14,905 nt of DNA, from NCBI GenBank assembly GCA_963749655.1, contig CAVVOB010000003.1, forward strand, positions 1 through 14,905. The letters run 5' to 3'. The notes under the pieces were generated by a model. That model was not told the DNA's origin. It made no database searches and saw only the letters and a program-made list of their open reading frames with translations. The stretch comes from Nitrospirota bacterium. Its GTDB lineage: Bacteria; Nitrospirota; UBA9217. How positions within the stretch are numbered: the stretch's first letter is position 1; every line of letters begins with the position of its first letter. The position numbers were made by a program, and so were the translations under genes. This document shows, piece by piece, positions 1 through 14,905 of the stretch.

Positions 1-458
1 CATGAGAGAACTGCTCCCGCAGCTACGGCGTAATCAGGAACATCGCCGGAAAGAACAGCGCAGAACTCAGACTGTTCAATGCCCGTGCCCAGAAGCCGCT
101 CAAGACCCCCAGGACCCGCCTTCACGACCCTGTCCTCCTCCGGCGTACGCAGCAGGACGTCGTTCCCGTTCCAGACCACGGCCACGAGGGACTGCCCCAA
201 CGGACCGTATGCCTCCATTCGAAATCGCTGCTGGCCCTTCACAACAACGCCCACCGTATCGAAAGCGCGGGTTTTCCCCCCTTTAACGACCTCCACTCTC
301 GCAAGTGCCCTCAGGCCGGCAAAAGCCTCACGTCGCAGATCCAGCGCCCGCAGAACTGCATCTGCAGGAACAACGGTCATGGGAATCTCCGGCATTTTAG
401 GCAGGCAAGAGAACAGAAGAGGGGCAATGACGAGAGCGGCGATCCTGGCGGTCTTCAC
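1..458 (-). CDS. LolB-like/LolA-fold outer-membrane lipoprotein, partial (3' end runs off the window; not in the ORF track)
   Basis: GTG start at 458-456 overlaps the TGA stop of the TPR gene (GTGA). My translation is MKTARIAALVIAPLLFSC-LPKMPEIP...QRFRMEAYGPLGQSLVAVVWNGNDVLLRTPEE..., open to base 1. It has a lipobox (LFSC), and the RMEAYGPLG segment plus its position after a TPR gene resemble the TPR-lolB arrangement. Confidence 0.75.
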   Translation of the reverse strand, partial: MKTARIAALVIAPLLFSCLPKMPEIPMTVVPADAVLRALDLRREAFAGLRALARVEVVKGGKTRAFDTVGVVVKGQQRFRMEAYGPLGQSLVAVVWNGNDVLLRTPEEDRVVKAGPGGLERLLGTGIEQSEFCAVLSGDVPDYAVAAGAVLS

Positions 459-2206
459 TTCTTATTCTTTTTCCTCGGCTTCGCATCTTTGAGAAGAATG
501 TCTGGGTTTCCGAACCCCTGTTTGACGAATTTCTCCCGAAGCTTCTGGTTGTCCGGATCCAGTTCAAGAGACTTGAGCCATTGTTCCCGCGCCTTGTCCT
601 TCCGTGCAAGCTTCAGGAAAATATCACCGTAATGCTCGCGGATCACGGGGTCGTCGGCGACTTTCTGCACAGCCTTCTTCATTACTTCTGCAGCCTCATT
701 GAGCATCCCTTTCCGGAAATAAGCCCATGCAAGACTGTCGAGGAGATAGGCATTGTCCGGCTTGATCAGCAGAGCCCGTTTTACCAGCTGTACGGCTTCG
801 TCAAGATTTTCGCCTCTGTCCGCGTACAGATAGCCGAGATAGTTCAGCGCGTCTGCATTTTCCGGATTCAGCTCGATGGTTTTTTTCAGCGTGGCAAAGA
901 GCTCGCTCGTCAGTCCCAGTTTTTCGTAGGCAACAGCCTGAGTGAACAAAAGATCGTCCCTGTCCGGAGCGAGATCAATGCCCTTCTGCAGGACATCAAC
1001 CGCCTTCCGGTACTGCTCGACCTCAATGTAGGCATTGGCAAGGTAAAGGTAGAGCTCCGGTTTCCCGGGTTGCGCGGCAAGCGCCTTTTCGAGAAACGGA
1101 ACTGCATCTGCGTTCCGGCCTAATTGAGAATACAAGTAGGCTATTTGCAGGATCGCATCGATATCATCGGGTGTGGCAGAAAGGATTGCTTCATATTCCG
1201 TAAGAGCCTTGTCATAGTGTTCCGAGGCAACGTAGGTGGAAGCAAGATACCGACGGACCTTCAGATCGCCGGGGACGGCCAGAAGAGCGGCCTGAAAGGC
1301 CGTTGCAGCAGCGTCGTACCTTTTCTTTTCCACGTAAATAAGCCCCACCTTAACCTGGGCATCGTAATTACCGGGATCCATGGCGACCAGTCGCTGAAAC
1401 AGCTCCAGTGCCTTATCGAGGGCATTCTGCTGAATGTACAGCTGGGCCAGGTGCTGCATGATCTCGCTGTTGTGAGGATTGAGCGCGATTGACTTCTTGT
1501 AAGCGTCAATCGCTTCAGGAAGTTTGTCCATCAATTCATAGACGAATCCGATGCTTGTATAGGCGGGTTCAAAATCATCGCGCAGAGAGGCGGCCCGTTT
1601 AAATGCCGAAAGCGCCTCGGAGTACATCTGCCGGTCCACATAGATCCTTCCGACATAGTAGGCGGCCATGAGAGAGGTCGGATTGACCTTTTCAAGCGCC
1701 TGAAAGGTGTCGATTGCCTCATCGTAACGTTTCAGCGATGCAAACAGAGAACCCAGGTAGATATAGGGTTCCTCCTGTTTGGGATCGATCGAGATTGCCG
1801 CGCGATAGGCGGCAATCGCCATATCATACTGTTTCCTGTTCGTGGCGATGCTGGCCAGAAGCATCTGCGTCCGGGCATCGTTCGGCTGGAGGTTGGCGGC
1901 GGCCTGCGCATAAATGGTCGCCTGATCGAGCAGTCCCTTTCGCAACGAGAGGTTTGCAAGCGAAAGTGCGATCTCGGCAGAGCGGGGATCGAGTCGGTAG
2001 GCCTCCCCGTACTCCCTTATCGCCGCATCGACCTCATTGTTCTGTTCCAGCATGCTCGCGACCATGAAGTGATAGTCGGCTTCCGCCTGCGTGCGGACAT
2101 CGGCGCTTGCGTCTCCCCGCGTCGTTTCGGGCAACCGCGTTGTGACCGACGCACAGGATACCATGAATACCGCTGTAAGGGCGACAGTCCCGATGATTTT
2201 GAGCAT
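455..2206 (-). CDS. Tetratricopeptide repeat (TPR) lipoprotein, about 583 aa
   Basis: Many tandem TPR repeats (A..Y..A...DP...A...LG..Y) and a C-terminal ALNYLGY..AD / YLLDSLAWAYF motif typical of envelope TPR proteins. The ATG at 2206 (AGGA upstream) gives a signal peptide with lipobox FMVSC; the ATG at 2251 is an alternative start. Confidence 0.9.
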   Translation of the reverse strand: MLKIIGTVALTAVFMVSCASVTTRLPETTRGDASADVRTQAEADYHFMVASMLEQNNEVDAAIREYGEAYRLDPRSAEIALSLANLSLRKGLLDQATIYAQAAANLQPNDARTQMLLASIATNRKQYDMAIAAYRAAISIDPKQEEPYIYLGSLFASLKRYDEAIDTFQALEKVNPTSLMAAYYVGRIYVDRQMYSEALSAFKRAASLRDDFEPAYTSIGFVYELMDKLPEAIDAYKKSIALNPHNSEIMQHLAQLYIQQNALDKALELFQRLVAMDPGNYDAQVKVGLIYVEKKRYDAAATAFQAALLAVPGDLKVRRYLASTYVASEHYDKALTEYEAILSATPDDIDAILQIAYLYSQLGRNADAVPFLEKALAAQPGKPELYLYLANAYIEVEQYRKAVDVLQKGIDLAPDRDDLLFTQAVAYEKLGLTSELFATLKKTIELNPENADALNYLGYLYADRGENLDEAVQLVKRALLIKPDNAYLLDSLAWAYFRKGMLNEAAEVMKKAVQKVADDPVIREHYGDIFLKLARKDKAREQWLKSLELDPDNQKLREKFVKQGFGNPDILLKDAKPRKKNKK

Positions 2207-2303
2207 GATTCCTAGTCTATGCGAACTGCGAATGGGTGTCAAGGCAAACATTCCCCCGTGAATGTATCACTCTGTCAGTCCCGCACGGCCTCAATCCGGG
2301 TGC

Positions 2304-3098
2304 CTATGTTGGTGTCGGCGGTCGAAGCCGGGCGTGGACAAACGCTTTTACCCGATCAAGGCTTGTTTCAATATCGTCTTTGTCGTGAGCCTCGACGGTA
2401 AAGACGGGCACTGGCGCATGATCCTTCACCAGACCGAAAAACTTGTCAAAAGCTATGTTCCCGCGCCCCACAGCCCAGTGCGAATCAGCGGTTCCGTCGT
2501 TATCGTGGAGATGCACTTCCACGAGTTTGGGACCGAGGGCCTCGAACCACCTTTCCATGGGAACCCTCGAAAACAGGTTGAAGTGGCCCGTGTCAAAGCA
2601 AAAGCCGAAATTCGGATCAGCGACACTCTCGATGAGCATTTGAAGAGCATCGGGATCTTCGTCAAAGACGTTTTCCACTGCGACGCGAAGACCGATCTTG
2701 GACGCTGTTTCCATAACCTTGCGCCAGGTGTCGATGCTGTAGTCAAGCCAGACATCCTTGCGGCCGCTGTACCGCCACCGATCATAAGCAGCGTGAAACA
2801 CTACTGCACGCGGCTTCAGTATCGCGGCGACGTTCAAGAGCTGGCGGAACCGCACCTGGGTCACAGAACGCACCATGGGATCGACGGCTCCAGGATTCAA
2901 GTCCATAAACGGAGCATGAAGGGTGAGCTTCGGGTTCCAGTCCAGACGTTCGAGCAGTTTTTCCAGATCATGCTTCTCGATCTGGTCGAGAACGGCCGCG
3001 GAAAGATAGATCTCGAGGTCATATCGTCGAAGTCGAATCAGCTCGAAAAAATCCTTCAGCTTGGGATAGGGGATGTGAACGTGGATAGGCTCCATCAT
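2304..3098 (-). CDS. Sugar phosphate isomerase/epimerase (xylose isomerase-like TIM barrel, AP endonuclease family 2)
   Basis: Motifs TLHAPFMDLNPG, VVFH, VAVEN, CFDTGH, VHLHDNDG..DSH...GRG.I and TVE match the metal-binding pattern of this family. Confidence 0.9.
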   Translation of the reverse strand: MMEPIHVHIPYPKLKDFFELIRLRRYDLEIYLSAAVLDQIEKHDLEKLLERLDWNPKLTLHAPFMDLNPGAVDPMVRSVTQVRFRQLLNVAAILKPRAVVFHAAYDRWRYSGRKDVWLDYSIDTWRKVMETASKIGLRVAVENVFDEDPDALQMLIESVADPNFGFCFDTGHFNLFSRVPMERWFEALGPKLVEVHLHDNDGTADSHWAVGRGNIAFDKFFGLVKDHAPVPVFTVEAHDKDDIETSLDRVKAFVHARLRPPTPT

Positions 3099-3104
3099 CG
3101 ACGA

Positions 3105-3398
3105 TCAGCCTTTGGACGGACATGTGCCGGAGCAAGTTCCTCCCGAGGCACAGCCGGCAGCCGTTTTTTTTACATCTCCGCTCGGCGCATCGCCGGCATT
3201 CTCCGGCTTCCGGTTATGAGACGGGTAATCGGTTGCGTACCAGCCGTTCCCCTTCAGCACAAAAGAAGTCGGCGAAAGCACCTTTCGCACGGTCCCTGTT
3301 TTACACAGTCTGCAGATAGTAAGAATGGGATCGCTGAATTTCTGGATAACCTCGAACCTGCCGCCGCAGGTTTCACACTCGTATTCGTAATTCGGCAT
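3105..3398 (-). CDS. FmdB-family zinc ribbon protein, 97 aa
   Basis: MPNYEYECETCG..FE..QKFSD....C..C......KVLS...F.LKG.GWY.TDY is the FmdB (CxxC_CxxC_SSSS) signature. A GGAGG RBS at 3406-3410 supports the ATG at 3398 over the ORF-track start at 3428. Confidence 0.92.
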   Translation of the reverse strand: MPNYEYECETCGGRFEVIQKFSDPILTICRLCKTGTVRKVLSPTSFVLKGNGWYATDYPSHNRKPENAGDAPSGDVKKTAAGCASGGTCSGTCPSKG

Positions 3399-3448
3399 TA
3401 CAATACCTCCCTCACACTCTCGAAGCATTAACCTGAGCTGGAATCTGT

Positions 3449-3477
3449 ATTATAAACAATGGACTGTTTAAAAACAA
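3449..3477 (-). promoter_or_regulatory. Sigma70-type promoter of the FmdB-TIM barrel-TPR-LolB-like operon
   Basis: Minus strand TTGTTT (3477-3472), 17-nt spacer, TATAAT (3454-3449), about 50 nt upstream of the FmdB start. Confidence 0.65.
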
Positions 3478-3702
3478 GTGTTTTCGAGGGGTTCCCCCAT
3501 CGCTGTTACAAGGAAATCAATTGAGTGGACATTTTAACAGGGGTGAAGAATCATCTGAGAATAATACTTTACGTTTATGGGGAAAATGCCAGCTGACATG
3601 AAGTGAGCCACGCCGTCAGGTGGCCTGAACATCTGAACCTTCCGGCTCACCGGTATCCGTCGGCAGGCTTGGGCAGACTGAGCTGTCGTCGCAGCGAAGG
3701 AT

Positions 3703-4209
3703 CTATACGCGAATCTCTTTAAAGGTGATCAGATCCGACAAGATCATGGCGACCCACGCCATGATCTGAACTGCAGCGGGCAGGACAAGGCTTGATAGAG
3801 CTGCCAGGGTGACTCTCTTTTTCCGGGCCGGTCCGCCTTGCGCTTCCTGAACACGAACCGCAGTCAGTGAGTAGTTGAGAAGGAATGCAAGAGGCAAATA
3901 GGCAAGCACACGAAGATAGAATCTCGCCTGAAGAATGATCAGCACCGCCACCATCAGGATCACTTCAAGAAAGGTGATAAAAACGGTCCTTGTCTTGGAA
4001 AGCTTCCACATTTTCTCCGAAAGGACATATTTTACGATCATCGTCACACTGACGCCGATCAAAAACATGGTAGATACGAACATGAAGGTGCAGAAGCAGC
4101 CCACCTCTACGGCACAGGCAGAAGGAGGAAAGGCAAGGAATACCGCCATGAGACAGGCCAGACTGCTGGAGACGGCGGACAAATCATCAATTCTTTGCCG
4201 AATTTCCAT
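3703..4209 (-). CDS. Hypothetical integral membrane protein, 168 aa
   Basis: Four to five hydrophobic segments. GGAGG 6 nt before the ATG at 4209 favours it over the ORF-track start at 4272. No recognisable family motif. Confidence 0.75.
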   Translation of the reverse strand: MEIRQRIDDLSAVSSSLACLMAVFLAFPPSACAVEVGCFCTFMFVSTMFLIGVSVTMIVKYVLSEKMWKLSKTRTVFITFLEVILMVAVLIILQARFYLRVLAYLPLAFLLNYSLTAVRVQEAQGGPARKKRVTLAALSSLVLPAAVQIMAWVAMILSDLITFKEIRV

Positions 4210-4353
4210 AGGTGTCCTCCCTGAACACAGAGCCCGATGCAACGGGATAAGAATTACGCAGTCATACTTCACTCTGGTTACGCATTACCTGGCTGACCCT
4301 TCGCTGAAGCCGAGTACGTCAGACCTTCGGCCTACTGCAAATTCACATGGTAA

Positions 4354-4382
4354 ATATTAATAAGTGCACCTTCTATTGTCAA
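4354..4382 (-). promoter_or_regulatory. Sigma70-type promoter upstream of the membrane protein and its structured leader
   Basis: Minus strand TTGACA (4382-4377), 17-nt spacer, TAATAT (4359-4354). Confidence 0.65.
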
Positions 4383-4566
4383 AGAAATTCGCAACAAAAT
4401 ACATCTTTTCAGAAAAGTTGCAATTTACAGATAAGCTGATATATATAATTTGAGTGATGGTTCGCCTGAATACTTATTCATTTAAGAATGTATCTTGGCA
4501 CGGCACAGGGACGCAATTATCGTGCGAAGGGAGGTCCTCGTGCATACCAGCTACAGCAACACCCTA

Positions 4567-4803
4567 TTATTTTTTTATACTGCGGGCCTTATGGCAGACG
4601 AGACACTGTTCCTTTGGAGGATGGGTACTCTTGAGCGGCGACCGCTTATCCGCGCCGTGACATTCAAGACACAGGACGTTCGACGACGCGTTTCTGTGCA
4701 GGGCATCGTCAGGAAGGGCGGGAACGTTGTTCCGGGAAGAAAGATAAAAAAGGAAAGCAAGCACCGCGCAGGCGGTAATAATGACGGGTATCGAACTCTT
4801 CAT
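4567..4803 (-). CDS. Small diheme cytochrome c (DHC2/NapB-like), 78 aa
   Basis: N-terminal signal/anchor helix, two CxxCH motifs (CLECH, CLVCH), candidate distal His ligands in P.D..H and HPP, and a GGAGG RBS at 4811-4815. Confidence 0.88.
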   Translation of the reverse strand: MKSSIPVIITACAVLAFLFYLSSRNNVPALPDDALHRNASSNVLCLECHGADKRSPLKSTHPPKEQCLVCHKARSIKK

Positions 4804-4985
4804 GTCAGAACCTCCGAAAACAATCTCGAACAGAATATCAGGGGCTGATCCAGCCGCGTCAGCCCGGCCTTATGACTGCTCAACACGCGGACAATAGTAT
4901 GCTCGCCAAAGAGATGCCTGTCAAGTCTGCCCCCGGTGACATCCTGCGAAATCCGGCTCCCATTGTATATTCCTTGCCGGCTTTC

Positions 4986-4994
4986 TGATATAAT
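4986..4994 (+). promoter_or_regulatory. Extended -10 promoter element of the giant fusion gene
   Basis: TGaTATAAT at 4986-4994 with no good -35 at standard spacing. RBS AAGGAG at 5073-5078 precedes the ATG at 5084. Confidence 0.5.
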
Positions 4995-5083
4995 TTTTAT
5001 AGCACGAAATTATCAAGCAAGCCTTTCTCAACACCCCAGAGAATTCATTCCTGAACGAGCAAGCCTTAGGAAAAGGAGTCAGC

Positions 5084-6700
5084 ATGATACAGTACAAATT
5101 CGACGTTGTGGTCGTCGGAGCCGGACCGGCAGGAGTGGCTGCCGCGGGCAGCCTGGCCCGTGCCGGCATTTCGGTAGCCCTCCTCGAAGCAGGCGTCTAT
5201 GCAGGTGCGGAAAACTGGTCCGGCTGTGTATATTTTACCGAGAACCTGGCAGCAGAGGACTGCTTCGGAAACGAGTCAGTCGAGGCCGCTCCCTTTGAAC
5301 GGCGGGTCACGCGGCGCGGAACGCTGCTGCATAACGGTCTGGACGTCCTCGGTCTGGAGGTCCGCGATTCCACTCTCTTTAAGAATTGCTACACGGTCCT
5401 GAGGCCGGTCTATGATCCCTACTTTGCCCACCTTGCGCGCTTGAAGGGCGCAGTGCATCTGACGGCGACGACCGTCACCGCCCTAATCCGGAAAAATGGC
5501 AGGGTCATCGGCGTTGAGACGAACCGGGGTCCGCTGTACGCCGACATGGTCTTTCTTGCCGAAGGAGACGCTTCGCACCTGGTCCGCTCGGAGCAGCTCG
5601 AGCGAACGGCCCGCCCGCACTACATGCAGGGCGTCAAGGCGGTGCTGTCGCTCCCTTCTCAGGAAATCGAAACCAGGTTCGGGCTCGCTTCCGGCGAAGG
5701 CGCCGCCTACGAGCTTCTTGTCCGGAATGCGTCGATCGCAGGGAGAACCGCCCGGCTGAATGTCGGCGGTTTTCTGTATACCAACCGCGACTCCCTCTCC
5801 CTCGGCTATGTCCTTCCCCTGGCCAACCTGCGCAACAATTATCACGGCGATCATGACAGGCTGTTCGAATGGCTGCGCGGCCTGCCCCTCCTCCGTGAAT
5901 TTACCCACGATGCGAAGCTCACGGCGTACGGCACCAAGATCATCAGAAGCGGCGGATGGAACGAGCGGCCCGTGCTCGTCCAGGACGGCCTCGCTGTCGG
6001 CGGCGCTTCGACCGGGCTCGGGATAGACATCCCTTTTCCGAATTTCACCGGGCCGGCCTCGGCATCAGGGCTGTACTTCGCCCGGGCAGCGATCGCCCTC
6101 CTGAGGGATGGAAAAGCGCCTGACAGTCGCAACCTTTCCCGGGCATACCTTGAACCCCTCCGGGAGAGCGTGTACGGAAAGAATGCCCGCTATCTTTCAC
6201 GATGGCCTGCCTATTTCGGGAAGTCGAGCACCCTCTTCGGCAGGACTATAGACATCGTCTGCGGCACCTCGCACTTTATTGCGTCAGGCAGCCTGTTGAA
6301 CACCGGCCGGTTCCTGCGGAGCCACCTTCTCTCGTTCCGGGGTCTCCGCGACTCGATCAGCGACACCCTGCGCGCCGTCACCAGCCTCAGGCTCTGGAAG
6401 CCGATCGCCTTGTCGGCGCTCAACCCCGCAACAATCGGACAATGGATCGCCAACCTTGCGAAGAAGCCGGCGTTGCCCGATCCAGAGCTCGTCATAACCC
6501 TGAAGATAACCGGCCAGGATGTCGATGGGAGAAAACTGCCGTGGCCGGCGGGATCGCTGATCAGGCGTCTTTCCCCGGCGCTTCTTCAAGCCCTCAAAAC
6601 AGTCTATGCCAATAACGACCGCCCCATGATGGGCAAAGCTGCAGAAGCCGTCCATTTCCTGATCCGAGGACTGCGGCTCACCGACCTCGTCATCCTCCCT
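5084..6700 (+). other. Domain of the fusion: FixC/ETF:quinone oxidoreductase-like FAD flavoprotein (about aa 1-540; boundaries approximate)
   Basis: Rossmann GAGPAG, GAENWSG, APFERRV, YTVLRP..D, MQGVK, IE.RF, GGFLYTN.DS.SLG are all FixC-type motifs. Confidence 0.85.
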
Positions 6701-9700
6701 GCCTTCAGCATAGTTCTCCTGTTCCTGTCGGCCTGGTCGGCGCTATGGGACGCTTTTCGTTATTACGTGCTCAAAACGCCTGTGGCAACAATCCTTGCTG
6801 AACCTGTTATGGCGTACAACGAACTCCTGAGGAAGGCACGCGACCTCGATGCGATCAAGCCGGAATTGAGCCTGGAAGCAAAGCTCGCAACTAATACCTA
6901 CCGCACGGGAAGCGCATCTCACATCCGAACGATCTGGCCGGAAGCAATCTCCGATCATACGGAGATGTCGAAGGCCGGGCTCTGGTGGGTCTGTCCAGCC
7001 CGCGTTTACGGTTATGACGCTCCCCTCTTCGGCCGGGGAAAAGTGACGGTAAACTTCGAGAACTGCATCAAGTGTGAATCCTGCTGGAGAGCAGAACCGG
7101 ACCGCGTGTTCTGGGGAAGACATACGGATCACAAGCTGATCTATCGGCCCGAAACCGCAGCCATCATCGACCTTCTGAAAGCGCGTCGGGAACCGGTCCT
7201 GGTCGGGCAGGGAAGCGGCAAATCTCCGGTGCCGATGACTCGGGAACTTTGGTACCTGGACGAGGATAGCAGGCGCGCAGGCAAGGCCGTTCAGCAGGCG
7301 TTGGCTGCTTTTCGTGATGCAATCCAACATCTGCCGGCATCAGCTGACAAGGGCCGGCTCGGCTGGCCGCTCCTGCTCGGGAAAAGACTGGCAGAGCGGC
7401 TGAGACGGTTCGAAACAATCCTCGCGGACAGCCGCTGGCACGATCTGGCAGATACCATCAGGACGGAGAGAACCGATATCGAACTCAAACTTACTGAAAA
7501 ACGGCTCTTCCACGCTCTTTACGCCTGCAACAGGCTTGAACAGAGGCTTGCGGTTCTGGATGAAGAAAAGGACGGAGCCGTCTCCTCAGCAACTTCCCGG
7601 ACAGCCCAGAGGAAAACCGTTGAACATGCTTCAAACGACGCAGCTGCAGTCTTCCCTGATCGAACGGTCAAACAGTGGGAAGAGGATTCCATGCCTGAAC
7701 CGTGGGCAGAGACTCTCCGGACCTTCATCGCCAGTCACCAGTCCGACCCAATCGGGACGGTCCGCTCTCTCGCTTTGGTGAACCCGGCTCTCGGCCTTGT
7801 TGCCGCCCACCATTTCTGCGCAATCAACATTCTCTCTCAAGCCGGCAGAAAACTCGGGGAAGGCATCTCCGCGGTTCGTGCCGACCATCTCGACATCGAG
7901 GAAGCCGACACCGTCCGGATCAGAGGCGTACTTCCCCTCATCCCCTGCGCAGCGACCCGAATGCTGTTGCTTTTAAACCGAAGGAGGGGATACCTCGTTC
8001 CGCTGGGTTCACCCGGTGTTACCGTCACGCCTTCGCCGTCGATCGGGTTCCGAGCAGCAGGACTTTCGGAGGTTGCTCTCGACTGCACGATAAAAAAGGA
8101 TGCTGTTTCGATACGAGAAGGAGAACCGGCGCCCGCTCCTGCCTCCTACCTTGCCATCGCCCTGGGGACGACTGATTATCTCTCCGGGCGCATCAAAGAA
8201 CATGCAACCGGAAGGGTCCAATTCCCCGGCCAGATGCTGGACACCGAAGGAAGGGACGGAATTGCCAAGCTGGGAGCCGTAAAGGCCCTCATCGCGCGGA
8301 CCGAAGCCTGGCGTCTTTTACTGCAGGCGTTGTATGACTCTTATTCTGCAATCCGCGATGAACGGGCCGCGTTGGAACTCGATCTTCTCAGTTCAACTGT
8401 TGCAGCCCTTGCCTTCAGTCCGGACCCCGGCACCATCGGATACGATGCGGGCCAGGTGTTCGGCGGCTTTGCTTATTCCGAGGACGACCTTCTCTCGCGC
8501 TTCTACCGCGACAGCGCTCTATTCCGGTTCCTCCCTCCAGGGCTGGACGCATCAGTGCGCCTGCATAGGCTGCTCAGTTCGCGAAAGGCCGGTGAAACGC
8601 CGCGACTGCACACCGTAGTTACAGGAGAACCTCTGAGTAATGATTCACAGCGGCTGGCGGAGCTTCACGGCGCATGCCTCAACCTGCCGCCGGGCATTGA
8701 CAGCGCACTTGCCGGAGAAGCGCAAGCCCTCGCACTGGGGCTTCGCCTGTTTCTCTCCGCGATCGAAGAGGGGCTGAACAGCGGGCGCAGCATGGAGATG
8801 GAATCAGCTGCCCTGGCTGTGCTGCTCAAACAGCTGGAGCAGCGGCTGGCCTCGGCCCGGCTTTCCGCAGCTCGGGGGCGGGTACTGCCGACGGCATTCT
8901 TCCCCATCGAACCAGCAGAAAAGGCAGTCGTCCTGGATATGGACTACGAATTGTTCTGCGGTGCTCCCGGCGCGCCGCACGCGTCGGGCAGTTTCCTGTC
9001 AACGGCCTTTGATCGTTCTCCCCGGTTCACTCCGGAAATGCAGCTGCACGATCCCCGGTTGCGTGCTCGATGGACCGAACTGGTGGACTGGTTCAAAGGG
9101 CACTGCAAGGGCCGGAAGTTCGACGGTCTCGACATCGAACGGGCCATCGAGAAGATCCACCGTTTGCCTGACTTCGTTATCGATGCGGTCAAAAAGCACA
9201 AGTGGCTCGCGACGTACATACCGAAATCAGAGGATGGCCTGGGCTGGCACAAGGCGGAATACTATCTCCTGAACTCCGCTGCCGGCAGCTTCGGTGACGC
9301 AGGCATCAACCTCTTGATCATGGCGAGCACCAGTATCGGCACGACACCCATTCTTCTCGGTCTGGAGGAGGAACTGCCGCGCGTCCGCGAAGAGCTTGCG
9401 CCTCTTGCGGAAGATGAAAAAAAGCTTGGCGAGATCGGCGCACGACTGGGTAAAATCACCGGCACTTTGTCCAATCCCAATCCTTCCTGGATAAAAAAGG
9501 AATACGAAGCGGTCATGCAGCTCGTGGAGAAACGCATCCGCCGGACCCGCGTGGTCAAATATCTGGCAGCCAATTTCCTGCGCGCTTTCTACGGGGCGGG
9601 CATCGCCGGCCGTCGGGGGGACTTCGGAAACTTCACTTCAAACCTCAGGCATGCAGGCGATCTTTTTACCAGGCTCATGCCCGACGTGCGCGCGGCCCTC

Positions 9701-12700
9701 GACGAGCTCCCCCGTCGCGAGCGTTGTCATCGATTGTTCCTCCGCTCTCTTGGCCATGGCGGGGTGAGCGCCTTTGCCCTGACCGAGCCGACAGCGGGCT
9801 CGGATTCTGGCGGCGTCAAGACTACGGCAAAACTCCACAGCACAAAACTGACCGCGCTTTCCGACGGCAGATATGCCTTCCGCCTCAATGATCAGGACGA
9901 GACCAGTACACGTTACCTCATAGATGCGGACCGGGTCGTTTTCCAGGACCGCGGAGCCGCGTACCGAACGCCTGATGGACAGACTGCTTCCATCAGATAT
10001 GACAAATATGACTACACCACGGACCAGGGAGTGCGGTATTACGAGTTAGAGGGGAAATCCTGCGAATTCCACGATATCGGCCAGATCCGCAAAACGGACG
10101 ACGGGATGGCCTATGAATACTATGCCCTCACAGGCGCCAAGATGTGGATCACGAACGGCAGCATCGCGACCCAGTTCTGTCTCTATGCCCAGACGGCCGA
10201 AGGTGTGACCGGCTTCCTCGTGGACCGGCACAGCGAGGGTCTGAAGGTCGGCGCCGACGAAAAAAAGATGGGCCAGCGCGGATCGCCCACAAACGAAATC
10301 TCGATCGACAGCGTGCGCGTGCCGCGGGAAGCCGTGATCGGGTATGAGGGGCACGGCCAGGTAAACGCCCTCGAGACGCTGAACGTAGGACGATGCGGCC
10401 TGGCTGTGGTTTCCGGCGCCCTCATGCGCAAGCTCATGCACGAGGCAGTCGCCGCCGTTCCCGCCAAACCGGAGCGCGATGCCCTGCTCGGCGAGGCCGC
10501 TGCCATCATGTTCGGGAGCGAGTCGCTGGCCCACTATTTAATAGGCCTGTTCGACCGGCCCCATGAATCGGTGCGCATGGAATCGGCTATTGCCAAATAC
10601 GTCTGTTCCGAAGACATTCACGAACTGCTGACGCTTGTAGAGCGCGCCTTCGGCCCCGCAGGCCTGACCGAGAAGTTCCTGCTTGAGAAAGCCCGCCGCG
10701 ACAGCCGCATCCTCACCATCTATGAAGGCACGAACGAGGTCCAGCGGTTCCTGATCCTGAAAGATCTTATCGCGCTGGCCCCGAAGTGGCCGGAACTTGC
10801 TCTGCCGGAAAACGACAAGACCGGCCGCATACTCGGTGAATGGAAAAACAGACTCCGGACACATGCGCGGTCTGCAGCCGACCTCCTGGGCGACAGTGCT
10901 TGGTCGGATGCCATGCTCCAGCCCGCGCTCTTCCCGCTCGCCGAAATGGCGGGCGAGATCCTGCGGCTGGAATGTATTTACTACCGGAAGGAATGGCTTG
11001 AAGCCAGGACCGCTCTGCTCGGAGAGAGCTACACCCGTCCCCTTCTCGCCGCCGGAACGCGTGCCGCCGAGCGGGCGCTGTCGCGGCTGGCCTTCCTCGA
11101 CGCATCCTACGCATCTGCGCAGGACCTCATCAGGAACGGCCTTGACATGCCCGAGGTCGTGGTTGCAGACGCGGCTCTTGACGCGAAGGAGACCGGCAGC
11201 TCCGCGCCGGCTCCGCAAGGAGTCCTCAAGGTCCCCGTCCGCATCCTGGCAGTCATACGGCCCGTTGCCGACCTTCCTCCCCGTCCACGCCTGTTGGACG
11301 GAACGATTCAGGAGTTAGTCTGGCGCATCAATACCCGGGACCTGGCCGGACTCACCCAGGCGCTGGACCTTAAAACTGCGGGGAACGCCCCGGTACAGGT
11401 TGACGTACTCATGCCCGGTGGACCGGAGCATGATGATCTCCTGAAGATGGCCGGTCAGGCCCGTGCAGACCGTCTGCACCGGATTAACCTCGATCCTGCC
11501 GCGGCGCCCCGGGAATTGATAGCGGCAATACAAAGCTGCGAGGCCGGGCAGCCGTTCGATATTATAATCACCGGCGCCGAGTCTTCTGATGGAGAACGAG
11601 GCCTTGGGACTTTTCTTGCCGGCGCTCTCAAGTGCAGCCACTATTATCAAGACCGCCTCGAAGTCGGACCAAACGGAACCGGGTTCGGTTCTATTAAGCC
11701 GCCGGCAGTGATCAGCATCTCCGCCTCTGCCGCGGAACTGGAAACAACCATGGTCCGGACGGTGGACGCCTTTTATTCCAGCATTCGCGTGTTAGACTCA
11801 TCTCAGCAGCGCAAAGCCCTTCCGGTCAAATTTTCCCTTCCTGCCGCATTGGAGGTGAAGAAAACAGCTATCACCGGGGTACGGCAGGCGGCGGATTACC
11901 TGCGCTCCTGCGCTGCAACGACCAAGGCATCGGCTGTTCCTGACCATGTCGACGACATTCCGCGGGGGGCACTGGACGGCACCAACGCCGTATGGGCAAT
12001 CCTTGACCCGCGGGAACCCAAGTCCAATCTCGCCGTTCTCAGGGCTGCGCACCTCGCCGCCGGGCTCGTCTCGCAGGAGGTCCATGTCGCCATTCCCGCC
12101 CCCCGAAACATGTTCCCGCAACTGGTCGGTTTTGCACGGGCTCACGGAGCAAGGCGTGCATTCTGTCTGGACACGAATGACGGCAGTCTTTCGAACGATG
12201 GTCAGCGTGAACTGCTCCGGGCCATCGTGAAAGACGCCGGCACACTGATCATTGCCGGGAAGGAGTGGCAGGGATCCTTCTCGTACACTGCGGGAGAGCT
12301 GCATTCTCCGGAGGTTCGGGCGCTGGTGTGCTCCGGCGTAACGGCGCTGGAACGGGGCTCGGAGGGACTGCTTACCTTCTCGTTGCCGGCATACGAAGGA
12401 ATGCTCGTTCGGCACTGCATGTGGCAGGGGGGGTCGGCGCTGGTGACCGTGGCCGCCGAAGCAGACTTCCCCGCGGCAGGCCGTAGCAGCGAATTCAGCG
12501 CCGTTATCGCCGACCTCCCTCTCTCACCCGGCTGGGTCAGGCCCCTCAGGCAGATCGCAGCGCCGTCGCTTTCGCAGGCCGAGGTGATCATCGATCTCGG
12601 CTACGGCATCCGCGACCGCGCCGGCCTCGGGCTGGCCGAGGAATTGAAACGCACCCTGGAGAGCATGGGACTCGAACCGATGTTCGGCGCCACGCGCAAA

Positions 12701-12973
12701 GTTACCCAGGACCTGAAGCTCTTGCCGCTCGAAGCACAGATCGGCCAGACAGGCGTCCGCGTTAATCCGAAGGTCATCATCGCCCTGGGCATCTCCGGCG
12801 CTCCCCAGCACGTCGACTATATCGCGTCACGTGCGGAAATCCTGTGCTTCAACAAGGATGCCGACGCGCCGCTGATGATGCTCAACGAGGTCCGATCCGT
12901 TCCCCGGGTGCATCCGATCGCCGGCGATCTGTTCGTGACTGTTCGGGAGCTTATTGCAGAACTGAAACGATGA
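5084..12973 (+). CDS. 2629-aa multidomain fusion: FixC/ETF-QO flavoprotein + FixX-like ferredoxin + two acyl-CoA dehydrogenase domains + ETF beta + ETF alpha
   Basis: Uninterrupted ORF with RBS. Ordered motifs: VVVVGAGPAG and GGFLYTNRDSLSLG (FixC); CPARVY..NCIKCESC (FixX); RVQF and QVFGG.AY....SRFYRD (ACAD1); FALTEP.AGSD, GAKMWITNG, KKMGQRGS, IYEGTNEVQR (ACAD2); RILAVIRPV and DIIITG.ESSDG (ETF beta); GATR, QIGQTG, GISGAPQH, NKD..AP, GDLF (ETF alpha). Confidence 0.93.
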   Translation: MIQYKFDVVVVGAGPAGVAAAGSLARAGISVALLEAGVYAGAENWSGCVYFTENLAAEDCFGNESVEAAPFERRVTRRGTLLHNGLDVLGLEVRDSTLFKNCYTVLRPVYDPYFAHLARLKGAVHLTATTVTALIRKNGRVIGVETNRGPLYADMVFLAEGDASHLVRSEQLERTARPHYMQGVKAVLSLPSQEIETRFGLASGEGAAYELLVRNASIAGRTARLNVGGFLYTNRDSLSLGYVLPLANLRNNYHGDHDRLFEWLRGLPLLREFTHDAKLTAYGTKIIRSGGWNERPVLVQDGLAVGGASTGLGIDIPFPNFTGPASASGLYFARAAIALLRDGKAPDSRNLSRAYLEPLRESVYGKNARYLSRWPAYFGKSSTLFGRTIDIVCGTSHFIASGSLLNTGRFLRSHLLSFRGLRDSISDTLRAVTSLRLWKPIALSALNPATIGQWIANLAKKPALPDPELVITLKITGQDVDGRKLPWPAGSLIRRLSPALLQALKTVYANNDRPMMGKAAEAVHFLIRGLRLTDLVILPAFSIVLLFLSAWSALWDAFRYYVLKTPVATILAEPVMAYNELLRKARDLDAIKPELSLEAKLATNTYRTGSASHIRTIWPEAISDHTEMSKAGLWWVCPARVYGYDAPLFGRGKVTVNFENCIKCESCWRAEPDRVFWGRHTDHKLIYRPETAAIIDLLKARREPVLVGQGSGKSPVPMTRELWYLDEDSRRAGKAVQQALAAFRDAIQHLPASADKGRLGWPLLLGKRLAERLRRFETILADSRWHDLADTIRTERTDIELKLTEKRLFHALYACNRLEQRLAVLDEEKDGAVSSATSRTAQRKTVEHASNDAAAVFPDRTVKQWEEDSMPEPWAETLRTFIASHQSDPIGTVRSLALVNPALGLVAAHHFCAINILSQAGRKLGEGISAVRADHLDIEEADTVRIRGVLPLIPCAATRMLLLLNRRRGYLVPLGSPGVTVTPSPSIGFRAAGLSEVALDCTIKKDAVSIREGEPAPAPASYLAIALGTTDYLSGRIKEHATGRVQFPGQMLDTEGRDGIAKLGAVKALIARTEAWRLLLQALYDSYSAIRDERAALELDLLSSTVAALAFSPDPGTIGYDAGQVFGGFAYSEDDLLSRFYRDSALFRFLPPGLDASVRLHRLLSSRKAGETPRLHTVVTGEPLSNDSQRLAELHGACLNLPPGIDSALAGEAQALALGLRLFLSAIEEGLNSGRSMEMESAALAVLLKQLEQRLASARLSAARGRVLPTAFFPIEPAEKAVVLDMDYELFCGAPGAPHASGSFLSTAFDRSPRFTPEMQLHDPRLRARWTELVDWFKGHCKGRKFDGLDIERAIEKIHRLPDFVIDAVKKHKWLATYIPKSEDGLGWHKAEYYLLNSAAGSFGDAGINLLIMASTSIGTTPILLGLEEELPRVREELAPLAEDEKKLGEIGARLGKITGTLSNPNPSWIKKEYEAVMQLVEKRIRRTRVVKYLAANFLRAFYGAGIAGRRGDFGNFTSNLRHAGDLFTRLMPDVRAALDELPRRERCHRLFLRSLGHGGVSAFALTEPTAGSDSGGVKTTAKLHSTKLTALSDGRYAFRLNDQDETSTRYLIDADRVVFQDRGAAYRTPDGQTASIRYDKYDYTTDQGVRYYELEGKSCEFHDIGQIRKTDDGMAYEYYALTGAKMWITNGSIATQFCLYAQTAEGVTGFLVDRHSEGLKVGADEKKMGQRGSPTNEISIDSVRVPREAVIGYEGHGQVNALETLNVGRCGLAVVSGALMRKLMHEAVAAVPAKPERDALLGEAAAIMFGSESLAHYLIGLFDRPHESVRMESAIAKYVCSEDIHELLTLVERAFGPAGLTEKFLLEKARRDSRILTIYEGTNEVQRFLILKDLIALAPKWPELALPENDKTGRILGEWKNRLRTHARSAADLLGDSAWSDAMLQPALFPLAEMAGEILRLECIYYRKEWLEARTALLGESYTRPLLAAGTRAAERALSRLAFLDASYASAQDLIRNGLDMPEVVVADAALDAKETGSSAPAPQGVLKVPVRILAVIRPVADLPPRPRLLDGTIQELVWRINTRDLAGLTQALDLKTAGNAPVQVDVLMPGGPEHDDLLKMAGQARADRLHRINLDPAAAPRELIAAIQSCEAGQPFDIIITGAESSDGERGLGTFLAGALKCSHYYQDRLEVGPNGTGFGSIKPPAVISISASAAELETTMVRTVDAFYSSIRVLDSSQQRKALPVKFSLPAALEVKKTAITGVRQAADYLRSCAATTKASAVPDHVDDIPRGALDGTNAVWAILDPREPKSNLAVLRAAHLAAGLVSQEVHVAIPAPRNMFPQLVGFARAHGARRAFCLDTNDGSLSNDGQRELLRAIVKDAGTLIIAGKEWQGSFSYTAGELHSPEVRALVCSGVTALERGSEGLLTFSLPAYEGMLVRHCMWQGGSALVTVAAEADFPAAGRSSEFSAVIADLPLSPGWVRPLRQIAAPSLSQAEVIIDLGYGIRDRAGLGLAEELKRTLESMGLEPMFGATRKVTQDLKLLPLEAQIGQTGVRVNPKVIIALGISGAPQHVDYIASRAEILCFNKDADAPLMMLNEVRSVPRVHPIAGDLFVTVRELIAELKR
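6866..7150 (+). other. Domain of the fusion: FixX-like ferredoxin (about aa 595-689)
   Basis: LEAKLATNTY...SHI start typical of FixX. Cys637 in CPARVY and Cys661/664/667 in NCIKCESC, followed by the conserved W and IY. Confidence 0.85.
7631..8880 (+). other. Domain of the fusion: degenerate acyl-CoA dehydrogenase ACAD1 (about aa 850-1266)
   Basis: SIGFRAA, AIALG, GRVQF, AGQVFGGFAYSED..LSRFYRD are present; the TEP..GSD and IYEG motifs are absent. Confidence 0.8.
9050..11190 (+). other. Domain of the fusion: catalytic acyl-CoA dehydrogenase ACAD2 with two insertions and a VLCAD-like C-terminal helical extension (about aa 1323-2036)
   Basis: YIPKSEDGLG, SIGTTPILLG, FALTEPTAGSD, GAKMWITNG, KKMGQRGSPT, TLNVGR, ESAIAK, RDSRILTIYEGTNEVQR (Glu1881), then Q..LFPLAEMAGEI. 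Confidence 0.9.
11237..11910 (+). other. Domain of the fusion: electron transfer flavoprotein beta-like (about aa 2052-2276)
   Basis: RILAVIRPVAD, INTRDLAGLTQALDLK, ADR, FDIIITGAESSDG, FLAGAL correspond to divergent ETF-beta motifs. Confidence 0.8.
11984..12973 (+). other. Domain of the fusion: electron transfer flavoprotein alpha (about aa 2301-2629)
   Basis: Divergent N-terminal domain (HGARRAF, PAYEG), then a well-conserved FAD domain: LSQAEVII.LGYGI, GATR, QIGQTG, GISGAPQH, NKD.DAP, GDLF. Confidence 0.9.
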
Positions 12974-13112
12974 GGAGAAGAACAGAGAAGATGAAGTTTG
13001 TGCGGAAAGCGGATAAGGAGACGCAGGAAATCAGCTGCATTTTATAAAGCTTCGGGAATAAAACTTATTGCCACCGGCGGTCAAATCTCGAACGCCCTGA
13101 AAATATCCTTTT

Positions 13113-13177
13113 ATCCTTTGTGACCTCTGAGGGTGCCCTGGCATATTCCAGCAGTCCAGGGTGGAAGTCAAAGGGAT
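13113..13177. other. Imperfect long hairpin between convergent genes (possible terminator or processing stem)
   Basis: ATCCTTTgTGAC (13113-13124) pairs with GTCAAAGGGAT (13167-13177); CCCTGG (13136-13141) pairs with CCAGGG (13156-13161). No clean U-tract. Confidence 0.3.
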
Positions 13178-13203
13178 GCGAAAAGACGAAAAAGATGGTC
13201 CTG

Positions 13204-14040
13204 CTAGGGTTCCTGTTTCACGGGAATGGAGAGGATGTTTGCTGTTCCGCCGGACTTCTTGTCGATAAAATCCTTGACCGGTGAATAATCATATCGATCG
13301 AGGCTGCTCGCGATTTCCAGCGCTTCCTCTTCAGAAACATCGTCAGGCGAAATAGTCGAGAGTTCGGGGACGATGTAGGCAAAGCGGCGGTCCAGGTAGT
13401 TCGTCAATTGATTATAGAACTCGCGCTGACATCTGCCGATGAAACCGCCACCGATCAGCACCTTCCTGGCACGCGTGGCCTGAATGAAGGTGTATAGATT
13501 TACCATGTCTTCGGCAGGCAGCGTGCCGCTGCTTGACGCAGCCGACAACACGTAGTAGATCGACCGGCCGCCTGCTGTCACGGTGTTGAGATAAGACACA
13601 TAGGACCGCGGCGCTTTGCTTTCCTCGAAATAGTCGCCGGGGATCACCAGCACCATAACGGCCCCCGACGCTGCGTGGCTTCCGATCATGATCGCTTCGC
13701 TTTCGAACTGCTTTTTTTCCAGCCTGAACTTCGCAGCGTGTGTTGAATCTTTTTCCAGATCCCGAAAAAAATGAGAATAGGCGGGGTGGACGATGATAAA
13801 GATTTCTGCCTGCTCTTTTGACTTTCGTGCGGCATTTGCCGTTTCTGCGGTAAGCTTCTGGACGGAGAGCGCACCGTCGGTGGGAGGAAAGCGGTTCTGC
13901 AACTCGGGGAAATAGGTCGTGGATGGATCAACGCAAACACCGGTCTGATTCTTAAGCATTACGGCAGCAGCATATTTACCACCATTATCGTAACATGCCT
14001 GCGAGCAATAAGGCTCCCCAAAACCACCTTTAATAATCAT
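13204..14040 (-). CDS. Hypothetical protein, probably chimeric: GC-rich body (13204 to about 13929) joined in frame to an unrelated AT-rich 37-codon N-terminus
   Basis: The body reads as a globular alpha/beta protein (IFIIVHPAY, VLVIPG, VLIGGGFIGRCQ) with GC-rich codons. Only 13 of the first 37 codons end in G/C by my count, and they carry a YCSQAC motif. RBS AAGGA lies upstream of 14040. Confidence 0.7.
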   Translation of the reverse strand: MIIKGGFGEPYCSQACYDNGGKYAAAVMLKNQTGVCVDPSTTYFPELQNRFPPTDGALSVQKLTAETANAARKSKEQAEIFIIVHPAYSHFFRDLEKDSTHAAKFRLEKKQFESEAIMIGSHAASGAVMVLVIPGDYFEESKAPRSYVSYLNTVTAGGRSIYYVLSAASSSGTLPAEDMVNLYTFIQATRARKVLIGGGFIGRCQREFYNQLTNYLDRRFAYIVPELSTISPDDVSEEEALEIASSLDRYDYSPVKDFIDKKSGGTANILSIPVKQEP

Positions 14041-14111
14041 AAAAACATCCTTTTAAATAAATATTTAAACTTCTTTTAGTTATAGTAAAGAATTTTATTT
14101 GCAACTATTTT

Positions 14112-14702
14112 TTATAATTTAACCCCAAAGGACAAATTCACCACAGGTAAATAATAATGCGAAAGTCTGCCTGTAGAGTTCCATTCCGAATACCACCATA
14201 ATAACTTTCCGAAAGTTTTACCAAACTTTGCAGGCCAATACCCAAAGCAATAGTAAAATTGCTTTTAAAGCAAAGGTAGTAGCCTAAATCGGGTTCAATT
14301 ATTAAATCTGTCCTGTTATAATCGCTATTGTTATAATCTTTACCAAATGCATATCCCAAGCCAAATTTAACGTCGGCATAAAATCCGTTTAATTTGTTCG
14401 ATAAAAAGGCTGGACCGGCAGCAAAGCCAAATTCGTGCGTTAAAAAATCATCACCATCCTTGTCCAAACGGTATAAAAAATAGTCCAGAAACACCAAAAT
14501 TATTGGTTATAGAGCGATTAACAATAATATGGATTGGCAAATAGCTTACATTCGGATCCATTGCTTTGGATACACCTTGTATTACTAAAGTATGAAGCGG
14601 GTTAATTCCAATAAACATGCTGGCATCCTTACTCTCTGTTTGAGAAATTGAATAATGAAATGTGAAAACACACATAAGAAATGTTAAAACGATCATTTTC
14701 AT
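14112..14702 (-). pseudogene. Bacteroidota-type outer-membrane beta-barrel protein (DUF3575-like), about 196 aa, interrupted by two compensating frameshifts
   Basis: ORFs 14451-14702 (signal peptide, IGINPL) and 14138-14497 (NGFY, GLGY, DLGYY, IALGIG) join by removing one base from the A6 run at 14475-14480. A second shift near 14190-14200 returns to the original frame and gives SEWNSTGRLSHYYLPVVNLSFGVKL* with the stop at 14112-14114. Confidence 0.65.
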
Positions 14703-14726
14703 AGTATAATTTTTTTGGTTAGTTCA

Positions 14727-14757
14727 GACCTTGAAGGTTTTGAAAACCTTCAAGGTC
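14727..14757. repeat. Perfect 31-bp palindrome, REP-like intergenic element
   Basis: GACCTTGAAGGTTTT-G-AAAACCTTCAAGGTC: 15-bp perfect arms, each containing an inner ACCT-N3-AGGT palindrome. Confidence 0.85.
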
Positions 14758-14774
14758 ATAAAAAATATAAATTT

Positions 14775-14905
14775 TTATTTGATAATTATTTTATTTACCA
14801 TAGTTTTCCATCCATTGTTGCTTTTATAATATAAAATCCTTTTGGAATGGATGAAATATCTATCTTTTCCTGATTAATCAATTGTATTTCAGGAATGATT
14901 TGACC
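14775..14905 (-). CDS. C-terminal end of a T9SS type A sorting domain (Por secretion CTD) protein, partial and with one frameshift
   Basis: From 14905 the frame reads GQIIPEIQLINQEKIDISSIPKGFYIIKATMDGK. Adding one base to the T4 run at 14804-14807 continues it as TMVNKIIIK* (stop 14775-14777). IDIS...KG.YIIK and terminal KIIIK match the T9SS CTD pattern. Not in the ORF track. Confidence 0.75.

Follow-up and report, generated by a model that had tools for sequence, protein, structure and literature searches.

How does a single polypeptide build an acyl-CoA dehydrogenase (ACAD) active site when it carries two ACAD domains, neither of which has the full set of flavin-binding motifs? This question is raised by contig CAVVOB010000003.1 of a Nitrospirota bacterium (assembly GCA_963749655.1); the entire contig, 14,905 nucleotides (nt), is the window analyzed here. 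A single open reading frame (ORF) at 5084-12973 on the plus strand encodes a multi-module redox fusion protein of 2,629 amino acids (aa). Its FixC-like and FixX-like modules are followed by the two ACAD domains, ACAD1 (aa 850-1167; 7631..8584) and ACAD2 (aa 1297-1900; 8972..10783), then by a C-terminal domain like that of VLCAD, the acyl-CoA dehydrogenase for very long chains, and finally by EtfB-like and EtfA-like modules; the features described below lie on the plus strand unless otherwise stated. A first-pass annotation of this DNA had proposed that the two domains have lost complementary motifs and that ACAD1 is a non-catalytic partner that completes the flavin site of ACAD2. The proposal is supported by the conservation of the motifs, by the fold of ACAD1 and by a model of the two domains in complex, and we consider it probable that the pair is an intramolecular pseudo-heterodimer with one flavin site, ACAD2 being the enzyme.

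The proposal starts from the premise that the site for flavin adenine dinucleotide (FAD) of one ACAD subunit is completed in trans by its partner, and the available text of four reports agrees with this premise (PMC13027082, PMC11153573, PMC8399759, PMC11333196). We took the registers of the motifs from HMMER alignments to solved ACADs; every motif, residue and coordinate that the first-pass annotation had named for the two domains was present in the translation of the ORF. ACAD1 retains two trans flavin-binding motifs and is without FALTEP..GSD, WITN and YEG. One retained motif is R1044-V-Q-F (8213..8224), in a 19-residue loop and in the sequence GRVQFPG, the codon of R1044 starting at nt 8213. 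The other is G-Q1124-V-F-G1127-G1128 (8450..8467; Q1124 at nt 8453), which aligns to the QILGG of human SCAD in a longer match of 'IQILGGMGY..YRDA' of SCAD to 'GQVFGGFAY..YRDS' of ACAD1. At the place of the catalytic IYEG motif, ACAD1 reads FRFLPPG (aa 1147-1153; 8522..8542), as judged from the SCAD alignment register and an ungapped comparison with ACAD2; in the ungapped register with both SCAD and ACAD2, P1151 stands at the position of the catalytic Glu.

ACAD2 is the mirror image. It has the cis flavin-binding motifs FALTEPTAGSD (aa 1564-1574; 9773..9805), aligned to FALTEPGAGSD of CarC, and GAKMWITNG (aa 1684-1692; 10133..10159), and it has IYEGTNE (aa 1879-1885; 10718..10738) with the catalytic base E1881, aligned to the IYEGT of CarC, MmgC and ACAD9. 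At the place of QxxGGxG it reads ERAFGPAG (aa 1853-1860; 10640..10663), and in the register of the CarC alignment R1854 replaces the Gln and P1858 the second Gly of QxxGG. The RxQFG motif is absent from its place (aa 1786-1806; 10439..10501), where the columns are variable: the R-K-Q-F-G stretch of CarC corresponds to A-K-P-E-R-D in ACAD2, followed by a 10-residue gap. The first-pass annotation had described this whole segment as lacking. The motif is indeed lost, but no helix is missing; the two helices there are joined by a loop that has shrunk to about 4 residues (aa 1792-1795).

To what extent is this division shared by related proteins? We searched 5.8 billion proteins using aa 850-1900 as the query and obtained 470 matches from 8,000 scored candidates. 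Nearly all of the best 120 of these were 2,600-2,900 aa long with an architecture like that of the giant fusion, and the named sources among them were metagenome-assembled genomes (MAGs) of Nitrospirota, Nitrospiria, Leptospirillia or Acidobacteriota. We aligned 105 of the best 120, all of at least 2,390 aa; the other 15, which are shorter and probably incomplete, were set aside. R1044, the Q-F that completes its motif, Q1124 and the G-G pair were each present in the ACAD1 of all 105 near-full-length homologs. The same domain had YEG in 0/105, W-x-T-N in 0/105, TEP or GSD in 2/105 and an acidic residue at aa 1150-1152 in 3/105, and its sequence at the IYEG place varies within the family. In ACAD2 we found the opposite pattern: LTEP..GSD in 104/105, W-x-T-N in 105/105 and YEGT in 105/105, with R-x-Q-F and Q-x-x-G-G each in 0/105. 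These counts bear out both halves of the motif assignment that had been made from one sequence.

The pattern held at greater distance, in 38 cluster representatives from phmmer of at least 1,600 aa and about 31-55% identity over the matched stretch. Their ACAD1 had R1044 in 36/38, Q-F in 37/38, Q1124 in 38/38 and G-G in 37/38; their ACAD2 had LTEP..GSD in 37/38, W-x-T-N in 37/38 and YEGT in 36/38, and R-x-Q-F and Q-x-x-G-G were each found in 0/38. One representative, P0173, has a sequence that stops before YEG. In alignment A1 (69 sequences), the invariant columns of ACAD1 include R195, Q197, F198, G274, Q275, F277, G278 and G279, which lie at aa 1044-1047 and 1123-1128 of the giant protein. 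Thus, the motif split between ACAD1 and ACAD2 is not due to chance, and the residues that do not vary in ACAD1, which otherwise evolves fast, include precisely the motifs that act in trans. Other ACAD1 residues are conserved in the family as well, such as S-E-D-D at 1132-1135 and Y-R-D at 1141-1143.

Is ACAD1 itself an ACAD? Since Foldseek and VIA-align searches with a 1,187-residue model spanning both domains returned ACAD2 only, ACAD1 was folded separately. The AlphaFold2 (AF2) model of ACAD1 alone (aa 850-1180, 32-row alignment) had a mean predicted local distance difference test score (pLDDT) of 86.1 and a predicted template modeling score (pTM) of 0.87. Foldseek matched it to many ACADs, with E-values of 3.6e-10 to 1e-08, TMq of 0.54-0.74 and a probability of 1.00. 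We also ran VIA-align against 48,161 representative chains without a Foldseek pre-step. The top match was 7xp7_A (Z 27.9, 303 aligned residues, root-mean-square deviation (rmsd) 2.8), followed by FkbI (1r2j_A, Z 27.8) and Rv3094c (Z 26.7), with 295-303 residues aligned over the top three; 54 of the 48,161 chains reached a Z of at least 8, and almost all those listed belong to the ACAD superfamily. The matches span residues 1-318 of the model. ACAD1 is thus predicted to be a complete, compact three-domain ACAD fold of about 318 residues, though a catalytically dead one by its motifs.

Given such a complete fold, one could imagine that ACAD1 is a second functional flavoprotein domain, with non-canonical flavin or catalytic residues, and that the protein binds two FAD; the conserved S-E-D-D and Y-R-D residues outside the trans motifs would fit such a role. 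The near-total loss from ACAD1 of YEG, W-x-T-N, TEP or GSD and the acidic residue speaks against it, as does the lack from ACAD2, which would have to complete the second site, of the Arg and Gln/Gly-Gly motifs. We regard this alternative as highly improbable, more so than any other considered here, and prefer to see ACAD1 as the non-catalytic partner.

By sequence, relatives of ACAD1 appear to occur only within the giant fusion family, with no detectable stand-alone forms. Among its 111 phmmer matches at E<=0.001 from 1.84 billion representatives there was no ordinary ACAD of about 380 aa. The long matches all lay at about residues 100-1290 of proteins of 1,000-2,900 aa, and at about 770-1290 in those of more than 2,400 aa. 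When we looked for a stand-alone or split ACAD1 among shorter proteins, the 31 matches were all close relatives, mostly from short contigs or pieces of the giant gene. Short matches in the phmmer search may be contig-end fragments, so that a split form is not disproved. In four related genomes (G151:C45, G212:C6, G179:C68 and G173:C14), the ACAD1 match is split into two parts (query about 4-241 and 239-321) that lie about 60-80 nt apart in one long open frame, a pattern that points to a short insertion within the C-terminal domain of ACAD1 for this subgroup.

Do the two domains fit each other as ACAD subunits do? ACAD2 (aa 1329-1901) and ACAD1 (aa 850-1169) were folded together as separate chains with one FAD. 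The interaction prediction score from aligned errors (ipSAE) of the complex was 0.82 (0.82, 0.83 and 0.81 in the individual runs), and the best of 3 controls scored 0.00. The runs shared at least 95% of contacts, with a partner pLDDT of at least 89. In this model, Q1046 and F1047 of ACAD1 touch the GSD loop of ACAD2 (G1572, S1573 and D1574), and Q1124, G1127 and G1128 touch its IYEGTNE strand (I1879, T1883 and E1885). These are also the contacts with the least predicted error: I1879 with G1127, G1128 and Q1124; D1574, S1573 and G1572 with Q1046 and F1047; and E1885 and T1883 with Q1124. The modeled interface is better conserved than the domains as a whole, in ACAD1 (0.84 versus 0.63) and in ACAD2 (0.89 versus 0.75). 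For human SCAD, the available text of PMC13027082 describes G160/S161 and E396 as binding the ribityl and pyrophosphate parts of FAD in cis, and R297, Q365 and G369 of the adjacent monomer as binding that same FAD. Since these cis and adjacent-monomer residues share one FAD, the neighbors in the model of ACAD1 and ACAD2 are the expected ones. R1044 stands two residues before Q1046 and would for this reason be placed to contact the FAD.

These findings can be put together as follows. ACAD1 would pack on ACAD2 in one chain like the two subunits of an ordinary ACAD dimer. The contacts to the isoalloxazine and the ribityl (FALTEPTAGSD and KMWITNG) would come from ACAD2, as would the acyl-CoA pocket and E1881 as the base; ACAD1 would contribute in trans, through R1044, Q1124 and G1127/G1128, the contacts to the adenosine diphosphate (ADP) part of the FAD of ACAD2. 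The symmetry-related flavin site would be disabled from both sides, as ACAD1 has lost its base together with the cis motifs, and the trans motifs are gone from ACAD2. As only one of the two symmetric sites would survive, we expect one FAD per ACAD1-ACAD2 pair and one active site per polypeptide, a stoichiometry that would match the single ETF (electron transfer flavoprotein) and the single FixC/FixX unit fused to the pair. Pairing would presumably take place in cis, and the giant chain would not need to oligomerize through its ACAD module.

Several points weigh against this reading. First, the assignment of ACAD1 to the ACADs relies on its predicted structure and a best PDB phmmer match to human SCAD (2vig_A) of E=0.0034, and its Pfam match to Acyl-CoA_dh_2 (14.8 bits, E 0.036) is under the 22.7 cut-off. 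The hhalign comparison of the ACAD1 and ACAD2 columns was insignificant (probability 0.2%, E 0.29); its register agrees with the motif reading and was not used as evidence. Second, R1044 is substituted in 2 of the 38 distant representatives, by Cys in P0173 and by Tyr in P0230. In the latter (1,675 aa) several motifs are missing or unaligned, including those of ACAD2, and the sequence may be broken or misaligned. Third, the ipSAE mark was reached in 116/157 solved complexes and 2/215 mismatched pairs, a calibration that is only roughly applicable here, as our model used a custom alignment and a ligand, unlike the calibration set. The complex score may come from the memory that the model has of solved ACAD dimers; such dimers have been solved many times over, and the score therefore shows likeness to them and is no independent proof. 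Also, the FAD was unscored in the complex model, so that contact of R1044, Q1124 or the glycines with it is not shown there, and the canonical dimer geometry of the pair is suggested by the contact list only. Finally, we found no biochemical data on any member of the giant family.

One more such point concerns the partner. Cis pairing and an inter-chain, swapped pairing are indistinguishable in the single-chain and the complex models. In a domain-swapped homodimer, the ACAD1 of one chain would complete the ACAD2 of a second, making dimerization through the ACAD module obligatory. The stretch between the two folds (aa 1168-1296; 8585..8971), about 130 residues with three long predicted helices at residues 336-350, 358-383 and 389-412 of the single-chain model, would suffice for either topology, and fused steroid ACADs remain dimeric. 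As evidence against a swap, the single-chain model of aa 850-2036 (1,187 residues), which the first-pass annotation had proposed to build, came out compact, with a pLDDT of 87.6 and a pTM of 0.88, and for a fusion that holds both halves on one chain the simplest reading is pairing in cis. We therefore judge the swapped arrangement unlikely, while giving it more weight than the other alternatives, and favor the intramolecular pair.

We then consider ACAD2 and what follows it. Pfam recognized Acyl-CoA_dh_M (63.4 bits, cut-off 33.3) and Acyl-CoA_dh_1 (65.9 bits, cut-off 22.4) in ACAD2, and Acyl-CoA_dh_N at 16.5 bits, under its 22.9 cut-off; the phmmer match to CarC (6fah_C) was 9.3e-32, and VIA-align placed the domain at Z 28-32. 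About 50 ACAD entries matched ACAD2 at Z 27-32. Short ACADs aligned from about residues 421-477 to about 1050 of the single-chain model, at Z 27-29. Long ACADs matched residues 448-1187 (aa 1297-2036), including their extra C-terminal helical domain: 3owa_C of Bacillus anthracis (Z 31.7, 491 aligned, rmsd 2.7), VLCAD 2uxw (Z 30.1, 509 aligned, rmsd 2.8, model 448..1187) and ACAD9 8phf_A (Z 29.7, 500 aligned, rmsd 2.6). The alignments to 2uxw, 7s7g, 8phf_A and 8ca1_A reach the last model residue, aa 2036. The first-pass annotation had placed the ACAD module at 7631..10750. Both domains are there, but the module runs on past nt 10750 with a VLCAD/ACAD9-like C-terminal helical domain (aa 1901-2036; 10784..11191), as judged from the alignments to 2uxw and 8phf_A. 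In VLCAD, the C-terminal domain sits where tetrameric ACADs have their second dimer, and by analogy the domain at aa 1901-2036 may limit the oligomerization of the giant protein.

Enzymes of the VLCAD/ACAD9 type form homodimers and retain the FAD motifs that act in trans. As ACAD2 and its tail are closest in structure to this type (Z about 30), ACAD2 might form a homodimer as VLCAD does; ACAD1 would then be no more than a scaffold or a docking site, for example for the ETF or FixC part, and would have no role in flavin binding. In such a homodimer the ADP part of each FAD would miss the partners it usually has, since ACAD2 lacks both trans motifs in every homolog aligned. A scaffold role would also leave unexplained why the trans motifs are among the invariant residues of ACAD1, and the complex model sets these motifs at the GSD loop and the IYEGTNE strand of ACAD2. 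We consider a scaffolding ACAD1 very unlikely, and the flavin-completing one remains our preferred interpretation.

ACAD2 also contains two insertions relative to CarC. Insertion 1 (aa 1449-1562; 9428..9769), with helices in the model, has no CarC residues opposite it and falls between CarC positions 120 and 121; insertion 2 (aa 1583-1677; 9830..10114) is beta-rich in the model and stands for 4 CarC residues in the alignment. Both are mostly of high confidence in the model, with family-invariant residues. It is our guess that they could serve as docking sites for the fused ETF.

The remainder of the protein was assigned with Pfam and NCBIfam and with a full-length family profile searched against the PDB sequences. 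Pfam and NCBIfam placed a FixC-like flavoprotein N-terminally, matched a FixX/ETF-QO ferredoxin weakly at about aa 636-670 and clearly recognized the ACAD middle and C-terminal domain (aa 1678-1894), together with an ETF domain (aa 2079-2185) and an ETF_alpha domain (aa 2496-2577). The family profile matched FixC of the Thermotoga FixABCX complex (7koe_C, 1.3e-50), CarC (6fah_C, 7.6e-50), CarE (6fah_A, 6.9e-29) and ETF beta (1efv_B, 1.4e-18); only the FixC, ACAD2 and ETF stretches matched in this search, and the ACAD1 stretch was without a match. For the fused ETF parts (aa 2037-2629; 11192-12973), the top profile scores went to CarE (6fah_A, at the value just given) and LctC (7qh2_A, 1.8e-26), which are ETF alpha subunits from bifurcating complexes, with human ETF alpha near (1.3e-24). 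A four-Cys motif, C637, C661, C664 and C667 (6992-7084), is consistent with a FixX-type 4Fe-4S site. Between it and the FixC-like part, aa 530-556 (6671-6751) form the hydrophobicity peak of the whole protein (Kyte-Doolittle mean 2.24 over 19 residues), a stretch that could anchor the protein in a membrane.

When 301 genomes were sampled evenly across the phylum, 48 of them, the own genome counted, had a match to ACAD1; some of the genomes without a match are incomplete. By family, the matches fell into f1 (39/63), f5 (7/7) and f30 (one, weak, E 7e-4), and where contigs permit, the open frame in the sampled genomes is about 2,600-2,700 aa. The genome that carries the window is 4.27 Mb in 39 contigs and 86.6% complete. 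In the flanks of the giant ORF (1-5083 and 12974-14905), Pfam on the ORFs gave no functional context: a 598-aa tetratricopeptide repeat (TPR) protein is encoded at 455-2251 on the minus strand, and the ORFs at 3-458 (minus), 2262-3431 (plus), 3703-4272 (minus) and 13204-14040 (minus) had no Pfam match. The 2 kb upstream of the giant ORF are AT-richer, with a GC content of 0.48-0.51 against about 0.58-0.63 inside. Elsewhere in the same assembly, Acyl-CoA_dh_1 had two matches only, the giant protein and an ordinary ACAD at C24:160242. Near the latter, within C24:158441-162645, are a thiolase-like frame and an ETF alpha that stands alone (C24:162406), and a thiolase and a hydratase/3-hydroxyacyl-CoA dehydrogenase form a cluster at C13:298369-301324. 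Judged from these loci, the organism has a minimal beta-oxidation set beside the giant protein.

What might such an arrangement achieve? The ACAD pseudo-heterodimer proposed here would lie outside steroid catabolism and inside an undescribed single-chain redox assembly, and would show how an enzyme type that is homo-oligomeric can be fitted into a single chain with a 1:1:1 stoichiometry of modules. We speculate, with considerable reservation, that it arose independently of the actinobacterial steroid ACADs and would allow a whole acyl-CoA-to-quinone (or bifurcating) electron path to run in one monomeric chain, in which substrate site, ETF and FixCX unit each occur exactly once. ACAD1 would on this view be a purpose-built internal flavin clamp, and might also offer the fused ETF a surface for docking. 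If this independent origin were true, the protein would be a second example of an ACAD pseudo-heterodimer, outside steroid catabolism, and would suggest that the division of labor is a recurrent evolutionary route for the fold. The locus also carries a warning for annotation, as the first ACAD copy is invisible at Pfam thresholds.

The principle of combining a dead with a live ACAD is already known from ChsE1-ChsE2, ChsE4-ChsE5 and the fused CasC and ChsE3. In the available text of PMC11153573, the alpha subunit of ChsE4-ChsE5 and ChsE1-ChsE2 is described as holding the isoalloxazine and as carrying both the catalytic Glu and the substrate site, and the beta subunit as holding the ADP-ribose of FAD; that of PMC8399759 gives one FAD per ChsE alpha-beta pair. 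In these alpha2beta2 enzymes the partners are separate genes and subunits, unlike the one chain here. As structural matches of ACAD1, ChsE4-ChsE5 (4x28_C) reached Z 25.5 and Thermomonospora Tcur3481-Tcur3483 (6wy8_A) Z 24.9 in VIA-align. ACAD1 is no nearer to these chains than to the ACAD folds of ColB1 (Z 27.9) or FkbI, and nothing thus indicates a common descent of the degenerate partner.

Closer in layout are CasC of Rhodococcus jostii RHA1 and ChsE3 of Mycobacterium tuberculosis, the latter being FadE34 (PMC6678751, in the text available). Both consist of two fused ACAD domains according to the available parts of PMC8399759 and PMC11333196, and the former, in the same parts, places the catalytic Glu of CasC in the C-terminal domain only and states that the N-terminal domain is needed for FAD. 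They share with the giant protein two ACAD folds per polypeptide, of which the C-terminal one is catalytic. The differences are several. The pair here forms part of a FixC-FixX-...-EtfB-EtfA fusion of 2,629 aa; its ACAD2 resembles VLCAD, ends in a helical domain and has taken up two insertions, each about 100 aa long; and ACAD1 is a shorter dead half, of about 318 aa, to which phmmer relates no ordinary ACAD. Moreover, CasC and ChsE3 are steroid side-chain ACADs, whereas the window is without steroid-catabolic genes by Pfam on the flanking ORFs. Our literature search, in which subscription journals were outside the search, found no published description of the giant protein.

The remaining relatives are those from which the modules themselves are recognized. 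VLCAD, ACAD9 and 3owa resemble ACAD2 together with aa 1901-2036 over about 490-510 residues, the C-terminal helical domain included (Z 29-32, rmsd 2.6-2.8); unlike VLCAD and ACAD9, ACAD2 has no trans motifs and has a dedicated dead partner. CarC-CarDE and Bcd-EtfAB (6fah, 5ol2) and FixABCX (7koe) supply the best sequence matches for ACAD2, the EtfA part and the N-terminal part. They are multi-subunit systems with homo-oligomeric ACADs, whereas here the corresponding modules are joined in one chain whose ACAD is probably pseudo-heterodimeric.

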